From: a virus
Lineage: Duplodnaviria > Heunggongvirae > Uroviricota > Caudoviricetes
DNA length: 8,184 nucleotides
Virus record (IMG/VR): IMGVR_UViG_2617270945_000004
Strand: one strand, 5' to 3'
Of this stretch, positions 1 to 8,184 are shown one piece after another. Below the pieces are notes generated by a model. The model was not told where the DNA came from. It did not search any database and saw only the letters and a program-made list of their open reading frames with translations. The position numbers and the translations under genes were made by a program. Within the stretch, counting starts at the first letter, position 1; each line of letters begins with the position of its first letter.

Positions 1-462
1 GATTTTACGTCACTTAAAAAACTCAGGCCGCAGTCGGTAACCTCGCGCATACAGCCGGGCAGTGACGTCATCGTCTGCGCGGAAATGGACGAACAGTGGG
101 GCTATGTCGGGGCTAAATCGCGCCAGCGCTGGCTGTTTTACGCGTATGACAGGCTCCGGAAGACGGTTGTTGCGCACGTATTCGGTGAACGCACTATGGC
201 GACGCTGGGGCGTCTTATGAGCCTGCTGTCACCCTTTGACGTGGTGATATGGATGACGGATGGCTGGCCGCTGTATGAATCCCGCCTGAAGGGAAAGCTG
301 CACGTAATCAGCAAGCGATATACGCAGCGAATTGAGCGGCATAACCTGAATCTGAGGCAGCACCTGGCACGGCTGGGACGGAAGTCGCTGTCGTTCTCAA
401 AATCGGTGGAGCTGCATGACAAAGTCATCGGGCATTATCTGAACATAAAACACTATCAATAA
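1..462 (+). CDS. insB: IS1 transposase InsB reading frame, C-terminal part (partial, 5' end outside window)
   Basis: ORF track 85..462 gives the 125-aa tail from an internal Met; the same frame stays open back to position 1. The translation is identical to the minus-strand ORF 7705..8082 in the right-hand copy. Confidence 0.9.
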
Positions 463-477
463 GTTGGAGTCATTACC
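1..477 (+). mobile_element. IS1: IS1 insertion sequence, 3' portion (5' part lies outside the window); IRR-type terminus at 460-477 faces inward
   Basis: Sequence 460-477 (taagttggagtcattacc) is the reverse complement of the IS1 terminal repeat ggtaatgactccaactta. The InsB reading frame is open from position 1 and reads ...[39 protein letters not shown]..., ending HYLNIKHYQ at 462, just before the terminus. Identification is by recall of IS1, not a search. Confidence 0.93.
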
Positions 478-516
478 CACAGGCTAAATAGTTTGAATGA
501 TTAGCAGTTATGGTGA

Positions 517-723
517 TCAGTCAACCACCAGGGAATAATCCTTCATATTATTATCGTGCTTCACCAACGCTGCCTCAATTGCTCTGAATGCTTCCAGAGA
601 CACCTTATGTTCTATACATGCAATTACAACATCAGGGTAACTCATAGAAATGGTGCTATTAAGCATATTTTTTACACGAATCAGATCCACGGAGGGATCA
701 TCAGCAGATTGTTCTTTATTCAT
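517..723 (-). CDS. ybcW: Small prophage protein of unknown function, YbcW-like (68 aa)
   Basis: 68-aa [23 protein letters not shown]...; length and position (beyond bor and the ybcV-like gene, divergent from the latter) match my recollection of ybcW in DLP12. No functional motif recognised. Confidence 0.55.
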
Positions 724-1008
724 TTTGTCGCTCCATGCGCTTGCTCTTCATCTAGCGGTTAAAATATTACTTCAAATCTTTCTGTATGAAGATTTGAGCA
801 CGTTGGCCTTACATACATCTGTCGGTTGTATTTCCCTCCAGAATGACAGCAGGACCGCACTTTGTTACGCAACCAATACTATTAAGTGAAAACATTCCTA
901 ATATTTGACATAAATCATCAACAAAACACAAAGAGGTCAGACCAGATTGAAACGATAAAAACGATAATGCAAACTACGCGCCCTCGTATCACATGGAAGG
1001 TTTTACCA

Positions 1009-1419
1009 ATGGCTCAGGTTGCCATTTTTAAAGAAATATTCGATCAAGTGCGAAAAGATTTAAACTGTGAATTGTTTTATTCTGAACTAAAACGTCACAA
1101 CGTCTCACATTATATTTACTATCTAGCCACAGATAATATTCACATCGTGTTAGAAAACGATAACACCGTGTTAATAAAAGGACTTAAAAAGGTTGTAAAT
1201 GTTAAATTCTCAAGAAACACGCATCTTATAGAAACGTCCTATGATAGGTTGAAATCAAGAGAAATCACATTTCAGCAATACAGGGAAAATCTTGCTAAAG
1301 CAGGAGTTTTCCGATGGGTTACAAATATCCATGAACATAAAAGATATTACTATACCTTTGATAATTCATTACTATTTACTGAGAGCATTCAGAACACTAC
1401 ACAAATCTTTCCACGCTAA
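1009..1419 (+). CDS. ybcV: DUF1398-family prophage protein (YbcV/YdfO-like); start uncertain
   Basis: ORF track frame 886..1419. The in-frame ATG at 1009 ([13 protein letters not shown]...) gives 136 aa, the length I recall for YbcV/YdfO, with aagg about 10 nt upstream. The ATG at 886 would add 41 residues with no recognisable RBS. Confidence 0.5.
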
Positions 1420-1709
1420 ATCATAACGTCCGGTTTCTTCCGTGTCAGCACCGGGGCGTTGGCATAATGCAATACGTGTACGCGCTAAACCCTGTGTGCA
1501 TCGTTTTTAATTATTCCCGGACACTCCCGCAGAGAAGTTCCCCGTCAGGGCTGTGGACATAGTTAATCCGGGAATACAATGACGATTCATCGCACCTGAC
1601 ATACATTAATAAATATTAACAATATGAAATTTCAACTCATTGTTTAGGGTTTGTTTAATTTTCTACACATACGATTCTGCGAACTTCAAAAAGCATCGGG
1701 AATAACACC

Positions 1710-2003
1710 ATGAAAAAAATGCTACTCGCTACTGCGCTGGCCCTGCTTATTACAGGATGTGCTCAACAGACGTTTACTGTTCAAAACAAACCGGCAGCAG
1801 TAGCACCAAAGGAAACCATCACCCATCATTTCTTCGTTTCTGGAATTGGGCAGAAGAAAACTGTCGATGCAGCCAAAATTTGTGGCGGCGCAGAAAATGT
1901 TGTTAAAACAGAAACCCAGCAAACATTCGTAAATGGATTGCTCGGTTTTATTACTTTAGGCATTTATACTCCGCTGGAAGCGCGTGTGTATTGCTCACAA
2001 TAA
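1710..2003 (+). CDS. bor: Bor outer-membrane lipoprotein (serum-resistance protein family of lambdoid phages)
   Basis: 97 aa, MKKMLLATALALLITGCAQQ...: signal peptide with lipobox ITG-C. Sits convergent to Rz immediately past the lysis cassette, the canonical bor position. Confidence 0.85.
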   Translation: MKKMLLATALALLITGCAQQTFTVQNKPAAVAPKETITHHFFVSGIGQKKTVDAAKICGGAENVVKTETQQTFVNGLLGFITLGIYTPLEARVYCSQ

Positions 2004-2010
2004 TTGCATG

Positions 2011-2032
2011 AGTTGCCCATCGATATGGGCAA
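2011..2032. terminator. Hairpin between convergent bor and Rz (9-bp stem, 4-nt loop); possible bidirectional terminator, weak U-tracts
   Basis: gttgcccat-cgat-atgggcaac is a perfect 9-bp inverted repeat lying in the 31-bp gap between the bor stop (2003) and the Rz stop (2035). Flanking T-runs are poor on both strands. Confidence 0.3.
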
Positions 2033-2034
2033 CT

Positions 2035-2496
2035 CTATCTGCACTGCTCATTAATATACTTCTGGGTTCCTTCCAGTTGTTTTTGCATAGTGATCAGCCT
2101 CTCTCTGAGGGTGAAATAATCCCGTTCAGCGGTGTCTGCCAGTCGGGGGGAGGCTGCATTATCCACGCCGGAGGCGGTGGTGGCTTCACGCACTGACTGA
2201 CAGACTGCTTTGATGTGCAACCGACGACGACCAGCGGCAACATCATCACGCAGAGCATCATTTTCAGCTTTCGCATCAGCTAACTCCTTCGTGTATTTTG
2301 CATCGAGCGCAGCAACATCACGCTGACGCATCTGCATGTCAGTAATTGCCGCGTTCGCCAGCTTCAGTTCTCTGGCATTTTTGTCGCGCTGGGCTTTGTA
2401 GGTAATGGCGTTATCACGGTAATGATTAACAGCCCATGACAGGTAGACGATGATGCAGATAACCAGAGCGGAGATAATCGCGGTTACTCTGTTCAT
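2035..2496 (-). CDS. rzpD: Rz-type i-spanin (inner-membrane spanin subunit)
   Basis: ORF track 2035..2508; the lambda-Rz-like sequence begins at [36 protein letters not shown]... (153 aa), with an N-terminal TM helix and coiled-coil-like body. Its ATG (2496..2494) overlaps the endolysin stop TGA (2495..2493), the classic R/Rz ATGA overlap. Confidence 0.85.
2094..2276 (-). CDS. rzoD: Rz1-type o-spanin lipoprotein, embedded out of frame inside Rz
   Basis: 60 aa, [23 protein letters not shown]...[15 protein letters not shown]...: lipobox VVG-C and a proline-rich mature part. Lies entirely within the Rz gene in a different frame, as in lambda Rz/Rz1. Confidence 0.8.
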
Positions 2497-2990
2497 TGCT
2501 GACCCCACAAACAGATTTCACGCTCAATCTCACGACGAGTCATGAGACCTTTCCATTGCTTACCGCCAGCATATGTCCAGCGACGTAGCTGATCACATGC
2601 GCCTTTGATATCGCCCTGGTTTATTTTGCGAAGAAGCGTCGATGTTCTGAAATTGCCAGCACCCACGTTGTAAACGAATGAGTAAAGAGCGCCGCGCGTT
2701 GTTTCCGGTATATCGACTTTGATGTACGGGTTAATTTGTCTGGCGACAGTGGCAAGGTCTTTATTCAAGAGTGCTTTGCATTCTGCTTTGGTATACGTTT
2801 TACCGAGCATGATGTCTTTTCCGGTGTGTCCGTGACATACAGTCCATACGCCAACGATATCTTTGTATGGTACGTAGCTGACACCTTCCAGACCATCGTT
2901 ACCACTTGGGCCAGTAATTAACACTGATGCTATAGCAATTGCTCCGCCACCAATAGCAGCAGCAACGGCTTTTCGTAATGATGGAGGCAT
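2493..2990 (-). CDS. rrrD: Phage-21-type SAR endolysin (T4-lysozyme-like muramidase with N-terminal signal-anchor-release domain)
   Basis: 165 aa, [36 protein letters not shown]...: Gly/Ala-rich weakly hydrophobic N-terminal SAR segment. Residues E35, D44 and T50 fall where I recall the R21 catalytic triad. Its start overlaps the holin stop by 1 nt. Confidence 0.9.
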
Positions 2991-3205
2991 TATTCACCTC
3001 TCGCAGCCTTGCGCTTATCTTCTTTAATCTTGAAATAAAGGTTTGTCAGGTACGTCAGCAGGCCAAATACCAGGCTACCCAGCACACCTATTGCTGCCCA
3101 CTGTGAGGGCGTGACTTTATCGAGCAGCTGTAAAAACCAGTAACCGGCACTACCTGCTGAGGTGCCATAGGCGACACCCGTTGTTAACTTATCCATGGAT
3201 TTCAT
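2990..3205 (-). CDS. essD: Phage-21-type pinholin (class II holin) with dual-start motif MKSM
   Basis: ORF track 2990..3250. The S21-like sequence begins [26 protein letters not shown]... (71 aa) with GAGGTGGGG Shine-Dalgarno immediately upstream. Two TM segments and a charged C-terminus. Met1 and Met4 give the antiholin/holin pair typical of S21. Confidence 0.85.
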
Positions 3206-3330
3206 AACCCCACCTCGCAGACAAAGCGGGTGTAAATTGAGGGAATACAACGTATCGCAAAAAAGCAGAAACGTAACAGACTCGGAGTCAGTGAATAACT
3301 CAGGTATTGGGTTATCAGCTAATATCGAGA

Positions 3331-3366
3331 CTCAAAAAATGGAAAAACCCGCTCGACGGCGGGTTT
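3331..3366 (-). terminator. Intrinsic-terminator-like hairpin with U-tract on the minus (late-operon) strand, about 140 bp upstream of the pinholin start
   Basis: Plus strand 3345-3366 aaacccgc-tcgacg-gcgggttt (5 GC pairs plus 3 AT pairs). On the minus strand the hairpin is followed by tttttccatttttt (3331-3344). On the plus strand only ttt follows. Confidence 0.45.
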
Positions 3367-3710
3367 AAGCTGTGTGACGAAGTAACCACTCTTAACAGCA
3401 TAACCAATTTTTTACGTACGTAAACCACTAAATGATATTTGCGAGAATGCTACCGAGTATTGAAAACACCACTACAAATACATAAGCAAATCTCAACAAA
3501 TAACCAACAAATAATTTCCAGCGTTATTTTTAGCTGGTTTAAATTGAATCTTCAAATTATAGAGCGCTTATAAATAACAGCCATTAATATAAATTGGCTA
3601 ATAGATTTATTTTTATTCAGCCAAGAGCCATGAATAGGATTCGATAGAAAAAGTTCAGATAAAAATAGAGATCTACTTCACAAATCAAATGAGAAACCAA
3701 AACTTACATC

Positions 3711-3740
3711 TTGAAATAATCACATTGATTAGATGAATAT
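3711..3740 (+). promoter_or_regulatory. Candidate sigma70 promoter for the porin gene (TTGAAA-18-GAATAT) within an AT-rich upstream region
   Basis: ttgaaa at 3711-3716 and gaatat at 3735-3740, about 50 nt upstream of the porin ATG; the surrounding 3400-3790 is strongly AT-rich. Hexamer match only, no experimental basis. Confidence 0.25.
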
Positions 3741-3792
3741 TTATCGCGCAGTGACATCATTTTTTAATAATAGTTCAAAAAAAGGGCTCACG

Positions 3793-4875
3793 ATGAAAAA
3801 ATTAACAGTGGCAATTTCTGCTGTAGCTGCATCAGTACTGATGGCGATGTCTGCTCAGGCAGCTGAAATTTATAATAAAGACAGTAACAAGCTGGATCTG
3901 TACGGGAAAGTTAATGCTAAGCACTACTTCTCCTCTAATGATGCAGATGATGGTGATACTACTTATGCCCGTCTTGGCTTCAAAGGTGAAACCCAAATCA
4001 ACGATCAACTGACTGGTTTCGGTCAGTGGGAATATGAATTCAAAGGCAACCGCGCTGAATCTCAAGGTTCCTCCAAAGATAAAACCCGTCTTGCCTTCGC
4101 TGGCCTGAAATTCGGTGACTACGGCTCCATCGATTATGGCCGTAACTACGGTGTAGCATACGATATTGGTGCATGGACCGACGTTCTGCCAGAATTCGGT
4201 GGCGATACCTGGACCCAAACAGATGTATTCATGACTGGTCGCACCACAGGTGTTGCAACTTATCGTAACAATGACTTCTTTGGTCTGGTTGATGGTCTGA
4301 ACTTTGCTGCTCAGTATCAGGGTAAAAATGACCGCACTGACGTAACTGAAGCTAATGGTGATGGTTTCGGTTTCTCCACTACTTATGAGTATGAAGGATT
4401 CGGTGTAGGTGCAACCTATGCTAAATCTGACCGCACTAATAATCAGGTTATCTACGGTAACAACAGCCTGAATGCATCTGGTCAAAATGCTGAAGTATGG
4501 GCAGCTGGTCTGAAATATGATGCGAACAACATCTATCTGGCTACCACCTATTCTGAAACCCAGAACATGACTGTTTTTGGTAATAACCATATTGCCAACA
4601 AAGCACAAAACTTCGAAGTAGTTGCACAATATCAGTTCGACTTCGGTCTGCGTCCGTCCGTTGCTTACCTGCAATCTAAAGGAAAAGACTTGGGTGCGTG
4701 GGGTGATCAGGACCTGGTTGAATATATTGATGTAGGTGCAACCTATTACTTCAACAAAAATATGTCCACTTTTGTTGATTACAAAATCAACCTGATTGAT
4801 AAGAGCGATTTCACGAAAGCATCTGGCGTTGCTACCGATGATATCGTTGCTGTAGGTATGGTTTACCAGTTCTAA
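3793..4875 (+). CDS. nmpC: General-diffusion outer-membrane porin of the OmpC/OmpF/PhoE family, phage-borne NmpC/Lc type (360-aa precursor)
   Basis: ORF track 3733..4875. The likely true start is ATG 3793 ([23 protein letters not shown] signal peptide; aaaggg RBS). Mature N-terminus [17 protein letters not shown], the motif [18 protein letters not shown] and the C-terminal ...VAVGMVYQF (terminal Phe) are hallmarks of enterobacterial 16-strand porins. Confidence 0.9.
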
Positions 4876-4890
4876 TTTGATTACTAAAAG

Positions 4891-4925
4891 ATATGTTGCG
4901 GGAGGCTTTGCCTCCCCAACATATA
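4891..4925 (-). terminator. Imperfect 34-nt palindrome followed on the minus strand by cttttag; candidate tR'-like terminator of a short late-promoter transcript
   Basis: atatgttgcgggaggc-ttt-gcctccccaacatat (one mismatch in the stem). It lies about 140 nt downstream (minus sense) of the Q stop, where lambdoid phages place pR', qut and tR'. A second 7-bp hairpin aagtggc...gccactt sits at 4926-4947. Confidence 0.3.
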
Positions 4926-5011
4926 AGTGGCTCCCTCAAGCCACTTCCTTTAGGAGCACAACCTTGCTTCTAACTATATAAACCTTCTGTTATATATTAC
5001 CCTTTATTTTT

Positions 5012-5040
5012 GGGGGCGTCTCAACGCCCCATTTTTAATA
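5012..5040 (+). terminator. Rho-independent terminator-like hairpin with T-tract on the plus strand; probable porin terminator
   Basis: ggggcgt-ctca-acgcccc (7-bp GC-rich stem) followed by atttttaataattttt, the first clean hairpin-plus-U-tract downstream of the porin stop at 4875. On the minus strand it is followed by A-rich sequence. Confidence 0.4.
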
Positions 5041-5063
5041 ATTTTTAGTAAACAATTGGCATA

Positions 5064-5447
5064 TTAATTAGAGTTATTAACAACGATATCCATCTCTAAC
5101 CGGATATCTAATGCCATTAACATCCCTTCAATTATACCCTCAGCCTTCTGTAACCTTTTCCCGATATAACCATCAGAGCAGCAATGCTTACCTGCCAGTG
5201 ACATGAATGTCATACCGACTACATAATAATCTACTAATAAATCGTGCAAATCGCTGTTGTTCTTTTTCAGACGGGCCATGCACCCGCAAATGATCATCGC
5301 GTCATCGTCACAACATTGCGGGCGAGATTTTACTTTTGAAGTAATTAATCCCTTAAAACCGGCGGCAATGGACGACCAGGTCACATCTTCATGATTATTA
5401 GCCGCCCACGCTCCCCAACGCTCAAGAACCATCTGAATATCACGCAT
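5064..5447 (-). CDS. quuD: Late-gene antitermination protein Q (phage 21 / DLP12 QuuD type)
   Basis: ORF track 5064..5462. The start with a good RBS is ATG 5447 (ggag 7 nt upstream), giving 127 aa: [26 protein letters not shown]...[16 protein letters not shown]... Position is immediately upstream of the porin and lysis genes, downstream of the nin/rusA cluster. Confidence 0.8.
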
Positions 5448-5532
5448 CAACTTACTCCACAAAAATCAGACCAGAACGCCAATTACAAGCAAAAATCAAT
5501 AAAACAGTATTAGTTGATTGTTATCTCTGACT

Positions 5533-5673
5533 TCATACTCCTGCTCCTGTCAGGGTTTTGGCGTAATTCCTCAGTATTCGGTAATCGGTCAAAACAGAAC
5601 TGGGGAAACGATATAAGCGCAGGCGCATCCAGCGGTGGCGAAGAAGTTCTGCCATATTAAACTCAAACATCAT
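5533..5673 (-). CDS. ylcG: Small protein YlcG-like (46 aa), not in the ORF track
   Basis: Hand translation of the minus strand: [46 protein letters not shown], then stop. Its ATG overlaps the rusA stop (gaATGAtg). The 46-aa length and rusA-to-Q position match my recollection of DLP12 ylcG. Confidence 0.5.
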
Positions 5674-6032
5674 TCATTCCCCATTTCGGTGATGGTCAGT
5701 TCCAGCCTCCCACCTTTGGTAACAGGCATCTTCACAACGCGGTAATCAACGACCTGAGCATCATCCAGCCAGAAACCTGCTTTGGTGAGTGCGTCAAAAG
5801 CGGCTTTTTGCAGATTATCCAGGTCACGGCGACGGCGATCCGGCATGTGGCACTCAATACGGATTTTCACTGGCATAGCCAGGCCGATATCCAGCATTGC
5901 GTTTTTAATGATTCGGGTGACGTTATCGCGGTATGCCTGCCCTTCTGCGCTGATGTGTGTGCGCCCGCGATTATGGCGGTAATAGCGATTATTGCTCGGA
6001 GGCCAGGGTAATGTGATGCTGTAGGTATTCAC
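5670..6032 (-). CDS. rusA: RusA Holliday-junction resolvase (crossover junction endodeoxyribonuclease)
   Basis: 120 aa, [37 protein letters not shown]...[31 protein letters not shown]; matches the RusA family essentially along its full length. Its start overlaps the ybcO stop. Confidence 0.92.
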
Positions 6033-6319
6033 GCCTTAATAACCCCCTCTTTCAGCCAGATAACCTGTGTTCTCGCCATACCTTCCAGCGCGCATTCTTT
6101 TGCATATGCAGCATCGACAAAATGTGTGCGGCGGTCGATTTCGTCGTGGCAGGCAGAACATGCAATGGTGGCAATCAGGTCTGGCGGTTTCGTACCGGTG
6201 CCGCACAATCCAGTCAGCCGGATATGTGCCAGTACAGACGTTTCAGGGTTGCCATTACATACGCCAGGGATTCTTACCTGGCATTCCCGACCACGCGCTG
6301 CTTTTCTCAAATCAGCCAT
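6029..6319 (-). CDS. ybcO: YbcO-like prophage protein (DUF1364, Cys-rich putative nuclease), 96 aa
   Basis: ORF track 6029..6358. The start with a strong RBS is ATG 6319 (aggagga upstream): [62 protein letters not shown]... The start overlaps the ninE stop. Confidence 0.75.
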
Positions 6320-6482
6320 GACTCCTCCTTGCTGCCAGTCGCAACCATTTTTTATCAACCAGGCTGGCGGTATATCCGAGCAGTGTTGGTATTTCGGAAG
6401 GCTTCAGCTCCGGTTTACGCTTACGACGATTTGGTACTCTGTAGATGTGTCCGTTCATGACACGAATAAGCGGTGTAGCCAT
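6312..6482 (-). CDS. ninE: NinE-like small protein (56 aa), not in the ORF track
   Basis: Hand translation of the minus strand: [56 protein letters not shown], then stop. Its ATG (6482..6480) overlaps the ybcN stop by 1 nt and its stop overlaps the ybcO start. Confidence 0.65.
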   Translation of the reverse strand: MATPLIRVMNGHIYRVPNRRKRKPELKPSEIPTLLGYTASLVDKKWLRLAARRSHG

Positions 6483-6937
6483 TACGCCTCCTGTTTGTCG
6501 CGGAGCTGCTGGAACTCGCAGCTCTGCGGAATAGTCAGGTGGCGGCCAATATTCACCGCCCAGGCTTCAACCTTACACAGGAAGATATACATCTCTCCGG
6601 TATCAAGATCGGAGGTATGGCGTAACGACTGGATAGTAGTGATTTCGCCGGTTACGACATCAACCAGGTCCTTGGTTTCATAACCGAGGTATGTGTGTTT
6701 GAGAGCATCTTTTACCCATGCTGCGGTAGCGAACGATTTCCCCCTGCTGATGAGGTATTCACTGATTTCGCTGTACCACATGTGGCTGAGTGCATTCTGG
6801 GAAAGACTGCGTTTCTCACGCCACGGTTTAAGCACCATGCGAAAGCATTTTCCGTCCTCCAGATAAGGCTGGATCTGCTGGCCGATAGCGGTGAAGTTAC
6901 CGCGATGCAGTTTGATGCCATCTTGTGGTAGGTTCAC
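6482..6937 (-). CDS. ybcN: YbcN-like nin-region protein (151 aa), GTG start
   Basis: 151 aa, [55 protein letters not shown]... The initiation codon is GTG (plus-strand cac at 6935-6937), preceded by GGAGG with 6-nt spacing. Confidence 0.75.
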
Positions 6938-7058
6938 GCTTCACCTCCGCAGAGGTCAGACGCTGGATGCAAAAAATCGCAGGTGCATTTCTGCATCTGT
7001 GAAGGGAGAAGAGAGTTTGGATTGTATGTGCGCATAAACGTCCCCGTTTAGCGCAGAA

Positions 7059-7096
7059 GTCACCGGAGTTGTTCAAGCTCCGATGACTTTATTATT
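7059..7096 (+). terminator. Terminator-like hairpin with T-tract on the plus strand, between the lipoprotein gene and ybcN
   Basis: gtcaccggag-ttgttcaag-ctccgatgac (9 of 10 bp pair) followed by tttattatt. No plus-strand gene is evident upstream of it, so its function is unclear. Confidence 0.25.
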
Positions 7097-7127
7097 ACGA
7101 ATTGATTTTACAAAATCAAAAGGTATG

Positions 7128-7580
7128 TTAGTGACGCGGGTCTGTTATTATGCGAGAAGGGTTTCCGTATAAAACAAGGACCTTACTTCCTTGAGTAAAT
7201 AACGGATCTTTGCCTTGAACAATGGTCATTAAATTCCCATTCTCAGTTTCGACAACATATTCCATGCCTGTTTGTTTTGTTGCTGAAGATTCGATTGCTG
7301 CCCCGGCAATACCACCAATGACTGCACCACCAACGGCACCAACGATATTAGAACGAACTCCCCCACCAAGCGCAGAACCAGCGGTTGCCCCCACGGCAGC
7401 CCCAGCAGTCCCGCCTAACGCGGAAGTCCCACTGATATCAACCCCCCTAGCACTAATAACTGTACCAGCGATAGTTCGATTAACCATGCCCACAGAGCCA
7501 ACAGAATAACTATTTGGCGATATATTTTGTGCGCATCCAACCAACACTAAGAGTGGAGCAATTACGAATAATCGCTTCAT
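7128..7580 (-). CDS. SlyB/Pcp-family outer-membrane lipoprotein with glycine-zipper domain (150-aa precursor)
   Basis: MKRLFVIAPLLVLVGCAQ...: signal peptide plus lipobox LVG-C. Central Gly/Ala-rich GxxxG-repeat segment (GGTAGAAVGATAGSALGGGVRSNIVGAVGGAVIGGIAGAAI). The C-terminal part (MEYVVETENGNLMTIVQGKDPLFTQGSKVLVLYGNPSRI) resembles the SlyB C-terminal beta region as I recall it. Confidence 0.7.
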   Translation of the reverse strand: MKRLFVIAPLLVLVGCAQNISPNSYSVGSVGMVNRTIAGTVISARGVDISGTSALGGTAGAAVGATAGSALGGGVRSNIVGAVGGAVIGGIAGAAIESSATKQTGMEYVVETENGNLMTIVQGKDPLFTQGSKVLVLYGNPSRIITDPRH

Positions 7581-7689
7581 TTAGCTACCCTAACAGGAAA
7601 CATTGGACGAGAAAGATCAACACTTTCTAATGCTTGCAAGAACTGCGTTATGTTGTTTTGCACCGCGCGATTAACAGATTCGCGTGCTC

Positions 7690-8184
7690 GGTAATGACTC
7701 CAACTTATTGATAGTGTTTTATGTTCAGATAATGCCCGATGACTTTGTCATGCAGCTCCACCGATTTTGAGAACGACAGCGACTTCCGTCCCAGCCGTGC
7801 CAGGTGCTGCCTCAGATTCAGGTTATGCCGCTCAATTCGCTGCGTATATCGCTTGCTGATTACGTGCAGCTTTCCCTTCAGGCGGGATTCATACAGCGGC
7901 CAGCCATCCGTCATCCATATCACCACGTCAAAGGGTGACAGCAGGCTCATAAGACGCCCCAGCGTCGCCATAGTGCGTTCACCGAATACGTGCGCAACAA
8001 CCGTCTTCCGGAGCCTGTCATACGCGTAAAACAGCCAGCGCTGGCGCGATTTAGCCCCGACATAGCCCCACTGTTCGTCCATTTCCGCGCAGACGATGAC
8101 GTCACTGCCCGGCTGTATGCGCGAGGTTACCGACTGCGGCCTGAGTTTTTTAAGTGACGTAAAATCGTGTTGAGGCCAACGCCC
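7690..8184 (-). mobile_element. IS1: IS1 insertion sequence, 3' portion (remainder outside window), inverted relative to the left copy; IRR-type terminus at 7690-7707 faces inward
   Basis: 7690 onward reads ggtaatgactccaacttattgatagtgttttatgttcagataatgcccgatgac..., the IS1 end as I recall it, continuing to the window edge. It encodes an InsB identical to the left copy on the minus strand. Confidence 0.93.
7705..8184 (-). CDS. insB: IS1 transposase InsB reading frame, C-terminal part (partial, 5' end outside window)
   Basis: ORF track 7705..8082 (125 aa from an internal Met, identical to 85..462). The frame stays open to 8184, reading ...[18 protein letters not shown]..., consistent with the InsB N-terminal region. 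Confidence 0.9.

Follow-up and report, generated by a model that had tools for sequence, protein, structure and literature searches.

The stretch of DNA analysed here, called the window throughout, is 8,184 bp long and is the Q-to-lysis region of a lambdoid prophage remnant of the DLP12/qsr' type, cut by IS1 on both sides. Both ends of the window are partial IS1 copies in inverted orientation, and the prophage segment enclosed by them carries a porin gene between the antiterminator gene Q and the lysis cassette:

1..477, partial IS1 (left), 100% complementary to 7690-8166 as an inverted pair
1710-2003, + strand, bor
2496..2035, - strand, Rz
2276..2094, - strand, Rz1, embedded in Rz
2990..2493, - strand, lysozyme of the SAR type
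3205..2990, - strand, holin of the P21 type
3793..4875, + strand, porin gene of the NmpC/Lc/'OmpD' type, 1083 nt and 360 aa, with a Porin_1 match and the RefSeq CDS ends
3793-3861, + strand, signal peptide of 23 aa ending SAQA; the mature protein begins AEIYNKD
5447..5064, - strand, antiterminator Q of the QuuD type, 127 aa (PF06530, E = 4e-53), convergent with the porin gene
6032..5670, - strand, rusA
6358..6029, - strand, ybcO
6937..6482, - strand, ybcN/NinB-like gene
between the IS1 copies, - strand, ninE
between the IS1 copies, + strand, DUF1398 gene
7690..8184, partial IS1 (right), pairing over 7690-8166 with the left copy

The window is colinear with the cryptic prophage DLP12 of E. coli K-12 at 95-97% identity. 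Our search of complete genomes retrieved several E. coli chromosomes that are 100% identical over the interior (478-7690), the two IS1 junctions being found together in no complete E. coli genome, and an exact search of the GTDB representative genomes did not recover the left IS1/prophage junction. Since inverted IS1 copies bound the 7.2-kb segment, the element has to be considered a prophage remnant, not a phage; the porin had been described as phage-borne in the original prediction, which is better worded as borne by a cryptic-prophage remnant.

The porin-containing ORF spans 3733-4875 (+) in the ORF list, the true start being the ATG at 3793: RefSeq WP_000737275.1 annotates exactly the same 1083 nt from 3793, the PA-2 lc record has its signal peptide annotated from the same ATG, and a polymorphism (A7/A8) in a run of A residues puts the upstream ATG at 3733, in frame here, into another frame in PA-2, ev243 and Turner. 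The protein matches the Pfam family Porin_1 (PF00267) over model positions 1-337 of 337 (E = 3.1e-153), and 48 solved porins align with it end to end, their mature chains starting at query residue 24, with OmpK37 as the best PDB match (E = 2.3e-137). It conserves the loop-3 motif LPEFGGDTW (PEFGGD) and a C-terminal VYQF ending in Phe, and its gene contains no internal stop, so that the initial claim of a complete porin with signal peptide and conserved barrel motifs is borne out. The 62-68% full-length identity to solved porins points to a predicted 16-stranded trimeric beta-barrel acting as a diffusion pore. The gene is opposite in orientation to Q, holin, lysozyme and Rz, all of which lie on the - strand, as had also been noted from the sequence; the coordinates were confirmed. 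A long ORF of 280 aa (3832-4674) runs opposite to the porin gene; it probably represents the usual codon-aligned antisense frame, the porin being poor in TTA/CTA/TCA codons. The PA-2 'ORF1' was not kept as an ORF in the window.

At the protein level the porin is 91.4% identical to both PA-2 Lc and K-12 NmpC (the latter with IS5 removed in silico), it reaches 98.1% identity to its counterparts in coliphages ev243 and ev099, and it shares 62.0% and 64.7% identity with K-12 OmpF and PhoE, respectively. These values, together with the flanking Q and holin genes, agree with its earlier assignment as an OmpC-family porin in the position known for NmpC and Lc. PGAP names the product 'porin OmpC' (gene ompC) in all genomes among the matches listed, which would make the gene the chromosomal ompC or a recent duplicate of it. 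Such an identity has practically no probability and is refuted by the 63.9% identity to K-12 OmpC, as against 91-98% for Lc, NmpC and the copies from phages, and by the constant neighbourhood of this porin, always flanked by Q and holin. The RefSeq name therefore misleads porin counts as well as readings of OmpC-related antibiotic or phage resistance.

The alignment to OmpC, OmpF, PhoE, NmpC and Lc, suggested along with the original prediction, places the allelic differences mainly in surface loops of the C-terminal half. Eight phage-type alleles differ at 47 alignment columns, 42 of them after residue 180, grouped around residues 182-187, 216-231, 263-267, 302-312 and 335-347 (approximate limits). 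These groups fall where indels are frequent in the alignment of OmpC, OmpF and PhoE, segments that are the external loops L4 to L8 in the OmpF and OmpC structures. Residues 1-180, L3 included, are almost invariant among these alleles. This pattern is the surface-loop diversification that would be expected with exposure to phages and antibodies.

Sequences matching the 1,083-nt porin gene are present in 4,049 of 5,426 complete E. coli genomes, many of them 100% identical. A probe of 300 nt centred on the K-12 insertion point, scored as intact when at least 80% of it was covered in one piece, found the gene uninterrupted across the K-12 IS5 site in 2,207 of the same 5,426 genomes, the IS5-split state appearing as half-length probe matches in K-12 derivatives. 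On the phage side, 36 records carry the porin with the same neighbours and in the same orientation, among them PA-2 (J02580), many isolated Lambda-like phages and phage 434B, whose porin is the K-12 copy acquired together with its IS5. Intact nmpC/ompD genes had been already reported in wild E. coli, for example in EAEC 042 and strain AW1.7. It is correct, as first stated, that the porin is uninterrupted where K-12 nmpC has its IS5, but the rarity thereby implied is not supported by these counts: given the genomes, the phage records and the wild-strain literature, the uninterrupted copy is the ordinary state. The porin gene and its ipeX 3'UTR are already known and very common, there being nothing new in the porin itself; about 40% of the complete E. 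coli genomes have an intact nmpC/lc-type gene, as do many isolated temperate phages.

The porin gene is preceded and followed by regulatory sequences of its own:

3594..3792, + strand, porin promoter region (PnmpC) and 5'UTR, by homology to PA-2 and K-12
3665-3685, + strand, CRP site 2 as annotated in PA-2, identical in sequence
upstream of the ATG at 3793, + strand, ribosome binding site AAGGG
4876..5042, + strand, porin 3'UTR, the ipeX RNA region, with four hairpins followed by an intrinsic terminator
5013-5030 (stem), then ATTTTT, to 5036, + strand, intrinsic terminator of the porin transcript

Among seven porin-bearing sources, the promoter region 3594..3792 is 92% invariant. In K-12, deletion of positions -199 to -1 abolishes PnmpC activity, and the transcription start site has been mapped by 5'RACE (PMC11677980). 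The other CRP site of the 1986 PA-2 record, 'CRP site 1', is unlikely to play a role in porin regulation because it coincides with the conserved initial transcribed region of the late promoter described below. Downstream of the gene, the interval of 188 bp from the porin stop to the Q stop shows about 97% identity to K-12 and PA-2, and its fold on the porin strand has a minimum free energy of -61 kcal/mol vs -30.6 for shuffled sequences (z = -9.07). Judged by homology, this 3'UTR is the known ipeX RNA; Rfam, searched in E-value mode with the whole window, returned no match at any position, the ipeX region included. According to later papers that cite Castillo-Keller et al. (2006), PA-2 brings about lysogenic conversion of the porin repertoire with down-regulation of OmpC via ipeX, and ipeX lowers both OmpC and OmpF. 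The porin transcript of a lysogen would add an outer-membrane porin and, via ipeX, lower OmpC/OmpF, as in PA-2 conversion, and we presume that the porin is expressed in its particular host.

It might be argued instead that the porin is intact but quiescent in its host, with a silenced AT-rich promoter and no phenotype in ordinary conditions. The region upstream of the gene has indeed 29-37% GC, and nmpC is reported to be a quiescent porin gene in E. coli B (Prilipov et al. 1998, as cited in later work). On the other hand, the PnmpC transcript is readily detected in K-12 growing in M9 glycerol (PMC11677980), and NmpC is reported to add to the heat resistance of strain AW1.7 (Ruan et al. 2011, as cited in later work). 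Furthermore, ipeX RNA is measurable in clinical isolates, and lysogens of PA-2 reportedly produce Lc, according to work by Schnaitman. We regard quiescence as unlikely.

The Q protein encoded next to the porin is 78% identical to Q933W (98/125 residues, E = 4e-75), the tails of both proteins diverging after RLEMD; with 127 aa it is shorter than the members of the Q933 family (144 aa) and has a different C-terminal tail. In phage Stx1_121427, the Q gene is 84% identical in nucleotides to that of the window and is closely followed by the pR' element of this family. A search with the late-strand terminator-like hairpin found upstream of the holin gene (3366..3345) revealed that the homologous element of the window lies elsewhere, between porin and holin:

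3424..3397, - strand, predicted late promoter pR' of the 933W type, by homology to 933W, SC370, Ss-VASD and Sakai Sp5
3424..3419, - strand, -35 hexamer of pR', TTTACG
3402..3397, - strand, -10 hexamer of pR', TATGCT, with a 16-nt spacer from the -35
3424..3411, - strand, 14-bp palindrome TTTACGTACGTAAA, overlapping the -35
3394..3335, - strand, predicted initial transcribed region, conserved block plus hairpin
3394..3382, - strand, conserved block TAAGAGTGGTTAC
3366..3345 (stem), - strand, intrinsic-terminator-like hairpin with the U-run UUUUUCCAUUUUUU after the stem

An element of 82 nt (3343-3425) matches 360 phage records and is annotated as pR' plus terminator, directly at the Q end, in 933W, SC370 and Ss-VASD. 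The order in the window is TTTACG, 16 nt, TATGCT, GT and TAAGAGTGGTTAC ... AAACCCGCCGTCGAGCGGGTTTTT, and the 933W row of the alignment reads TTTACG, 16 nt, TATCAT, GA and TAAGAGTGGTTAC ... AACCCGCCGATGCGCGGGTTTTTTT. The element exists once in the window, and positions 3335-3424 are 98.9% invariant among the seven porin-bearing sources, as compared with 77-86% for the flanking non-coding DNA; PA-2, ev207 and Turner have one stem mismatch in the leader hairpin. The hexamers of the window are weak (8/12 consensus matches) and were missed by a simple promoter scan, which called the homologous Sakai Sp5 promoter (TTTACG-16-TATCAT). The Sakai Sp5 pR' transcript, StxS, has its start determined by dRNA-seq, an RNase E site at +173 and a 3' end at +258 (Term-seq). 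When the Sakai start is set at A846, the sole downstream GTATT falls at +173 and the T-run of the terminator ends at about +258, in exact agreement with the published RNase E site and 3' end; by analogy, transcription in the window would start at about A3390. A fragment upstream of essD has been used in K-12 as the lysis-operon promoter. We infer from these similarities that 3424..3397 has pR' activity and regard the leader hairpin (3366..3345) as a candidate site of Q-dependent antitermination, which may be a partial terminator because the Sakai leader ends at +258 and not at the first hairpin. No counterpart of the Sakai +258 terminator was found before the holin gene in the window.

According to the original prediction, late transcription under the control of Q has to pass antisense through the whole porin gene before it reaches the lysis genes. 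The location of the sole pR'-type module of the window (3424..3335) between porin and holin, 1,639 bp away from the Q stop (5064 to 3424), contradicts it: pR' is on the holin side and not between Q and the porin, so that the porin is not embedded in the late transcript and Q-dependent transcription need not cross it. We therefore consider it likely, with good confidence, that an NmpC/Lc/'OmpD' porin cassette has its place between Q and pR'. Homology to the 933W type ends at two points, one immediately before the -35 (about 3425) and one around codon 120 of Q (about 5088), which would delimit a cassette of about 1.67 kb and imply that the Q tail was replaced. Such an autonomous lysogenic-conversion cassette (roughly 3425-5090) would comprise the AT-rich promoter, the coding sequence, the structured ipeX 3'UTR and the terminator. 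On the late strand, the proposed order is Q, the opposite-strand porin cassette, pR' with its start at about 3390, leader and hairpin, a spacer of about 130 nt and the holin gene (3205). The promoter would fire away from the porin, through the hairpin at 3366..3345 and into the holin, endolysin and spanin genes; the porin and the late operon thus diverge, the porin and Q converge, and Q would presumably act on pR' across 1.7 kb.

The lambda paradigm would place pR', qut and tR' in the 188-bp spacer between Q and porin, and antisense transcription would then read through the whole porin gene. We find this improbable, though it is not without arguments: pR' directly follows Q in lambda and in 933W, the spacer is conserved, a weak promoter-like sequence (TTGAGA-19-TAATAT) is present on its late strand, as is a long hairpin with CUUUUAG behind it, and ev087 and PhiR40_1 have a TTGxxx-17-TAATGT sequence plus a hairpin right behind their Q genes. 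However, the promoter scan called no late-strand promoter in 4876-5063, where the candidate has a spacer of 19 nt, ipeX on the opposite strand accounts for the conservation, and the single-copy homologue of the pR' of this Q family is located on the other side of the porin. Because of this homologue at 3424..3335, the candidates in the spacer were rejected: TTGAGA-19-TAATAT (5024..4994) and a -10-like TATAGT for pR', and for tR' the hairpin on the late strand at 4926..4893, with its CUUUUAG. Moreover, a strong terminator inserted in the nmpC/quuD spacer of K-12 had no effect on the antisense-driven IS5 genes, which its authors took to mean that transcription does not come across from the side of Q.

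A further possibility, to which we give some credit while doubting it, is that both routes operate, pR' at about 3400 being Q-dependent and, once an intact phage is induced, an N-antiterminated early rightward transcript running past Q in antisense and silencing porin and ipeX in lytic growth. Q and porin are convergent and only 188 bp apart, and the only late-strand terminator candidate in their spacer has a bulge in its hairpin and a short U-run. Terminators are ignored by N-modified polymerase in lambda. Antisense porin RNA could therefore arise upon induction of intact phages from N-modified early transcription past Q. Against its relevance here, the prophage of the window is a remnant in which no N/nut region is seen, and the K-12 experiments, done in uninduced cells, saw no transcription come in from the side of Q. 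The arrangement with the porin cassette between Q and pR' is the one that we favour, and models in which porin expression and lysis interfere transcriptionally should look instead to the convergence of Q and porin and the divergence of pR' and PnmpC.

The gap between Q and pR' is occupied by other opposite-strand genes in related phages. In PhiR40_1, Q is followed by an uncharacterised opposite-strand ORF of 148 aa and then by the pR' element (L007 2317-2399), and in phage cdtI the opposite-strand genes after Q are orf53 and orf54, with the leader-hairpin part of the element behind them; ev087 has a Blc lipocalin gene on the opposite strand after Q, and the 933W-type element was not found in this phage. 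It is tempting to speculate, if only tentatively and from sequence comparison, that the gap is a recurrent opposite-strand cargo slot of lambdoid phages with Q933/QuuD-type antiterminators, filled by porin and ipeX, by the PhiR40_1 ORF or by orf53/orf54 of cdtI, and that the 14-bp palindrome at the -35 (TTTACG-NN-CGTAAA) is the Q-binding element. If true, the cargo of the slot would stay outside the late transcript, and its terminator and structured 3'UTR would be a barrier to transcription leaving Q. The promoter pR' would have been moved 0.6-1.7 kb from Q, and the timing of lysis could change if this Q family prefers to act in cis.

The closest parallels to the window are found at several levels. 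As a protein, its porin belongs to the general-porin fold family together with OmpC, OmpF and PhoE of E. coli and OmpK37 and OmpK36 of Klebsiella, with all of which it aligns end to end, but it is a separate paralogue, mobile and prophage-encoded, whose loops 4-8 have sequences of their own. As for the late promoter, the Stx phages 933W and Sakai Sp5 have a homologous -35, spacing, -10, block and first hairpin (77-78% over 82 nt). Their pR' overlaps Q at its 3' end, with the tRNA and stx genes downstream of pR'/tR' on the same strand, whereas Q and pR' of the window are kept apart by opposite-strand cargo of about 1.67 kb. The Stx leader runs to the +258 terminator and gives StxS, whereas only about 185 nt separate the predicted start from the holin ATG in the window, where no homologue of the 3' part of StxS was found.

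The K-12 NmpC/DLP12 region is like the window in locus, gene order and orientation, with 95-97% DNA identity outside the porin loops. Both follow the order ybcN-ninE-ybcO-rusA-ylcG-quuD, porin on the opposite strand and essD-rrrD-rzpD/rzoD-borD-ybcV-ybcW, and they share the pR' element and the ipeX 3'UTR. They differ in that K-12 nmpC carries IS5B at about window position 4818, some 58 nt before the stop and after codon 346 of 365, which the window lacks; in the porin allele, of 360 aa in the window and 365 aa in K-12, with the differences in the loop 4-8 regions; and in the IS1-bounded segment of the window, with a gene for a glycine-zipper lipoprotein where DLP12 has ybcL/ybcM. PA-2 lc (GenBank J02580) is 92.4% identical to the window over 2.1 kb of DNA, with the same signal peptide and both annotated CRP sites identical in sequence, and 36 columns of the protein alignment differ between its Lc and the window porin, two indels of 3 and 2 residues among them; unlike the window, which is a remnant, PA-2 is viable as a phage. 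The same layout is found in coliphages ev243, ev099, PhiR34_1, PhiR68_2 and others, at 97-98.6% DNA identity from holin to Q, these being, unlike the window, complete, isolated and inducible Lambda-like phages.

The 7,212 bp of prophage DNA in the window are enclosed by an inverted pair of IS1 copies, and two open reading frames (ORFs) have to be considered besides the NmpC/Lc-type porin gene and its neighbours:

Window 1-477 and 7690-8184: inverted pair of IS1 copies whose 477-nt arms are 100% complementary.
Window 3832-4674, (-) strand: 280-aa antisense ORF with a TTG start, codon-aligned with the porin gene on the other strand.
Window 7128-7580, (-) strand: lipoprotein-like ORF of 150 aa with a Gly/Ala-rich glycine-zipper segment.

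The IS1-bracketed arrangement is either composite-transposon-like or the product of an IS1-mediated rearrangement. Both junctions together were found in none of the 5,426 complete E. coli genomes of the collection; the right one is present in NCTC9104 and the left one in SCPM-O-B-12142. Towards the right IS1, homology to K-12 ends at window 7121, and the position held here by the lipoprotein-like ORF, whose PF05433 match is weak and falls under the Pfam cut-off, is occupied in K-12 DLP12 by ybcL/ybcM.

Within the porin gene, the 280-aa antisense ORF has probably arisen as a side effect of the porin's codon usage. Codons 5-7 contain CAGTGGC (window 3806-3812), a candidate site for the sRNA RybB, being complementary to its 5' seed. 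The first hairpin of the ipeX region downstream of the porin (window 4893-4926) is a long palindrome followed on the late strand by CUUUUAG, and could therefore serve as an additional terminator of transcripts leaving the antiterminator gene Q; the stem substitutions in phages ev243 and ev207 appear, as judged by eye, compatible with pairing. RybB targets in E. coli reportedly include nmpC mRNA (PMC3333887).

On the other side of the porin, the 'CRP site 1' of the 1986 PA-2 record, carried into later work as OCrp1 of PnmpC, corresponds to window 3370-3390, the same place as the conserved initial transcribed block of the inferred late promoter pR', on the opposite strand. Since the porin ATG lies ~400 nt downstream, the site probably plays no part in porin regulation. 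Between the pR' leader hairpin and the holin start, K-12 DLP12 lacks 16 nt of leader (window 3256-3271) that are kept in the window and in all phage copies compared. The -35 of this 933W-type promoter is overlapped by a perfect 14-bp palindrome, TTTACGTACGTAAA (window 3411-3424), which may be a protein-binding site, e.g. a Q-binding element. Its counterpart in the Stx phages 933W and Sakai Sp5, TTTACGATCGTAAA, is likewise a perfect palindrome, the central TA of the window being changed to AT with the symmetry preserved.

Opposite-strand cargo directly behind Q is not confined to this locus: further lambdoid phages whose Q genes are related carry it too. In ev087 (L006, 2302-2826) it is a Blc lipocalin, with which no pR'-leader element was found, whereas such an element follows the cargo both in PhiR40_1 (an uncharacterised 148-aa ORF; element at 2317-2399 of L007) and in cdtI (orf53/orf54, DUF6731; element at 3424-3479 of L008).
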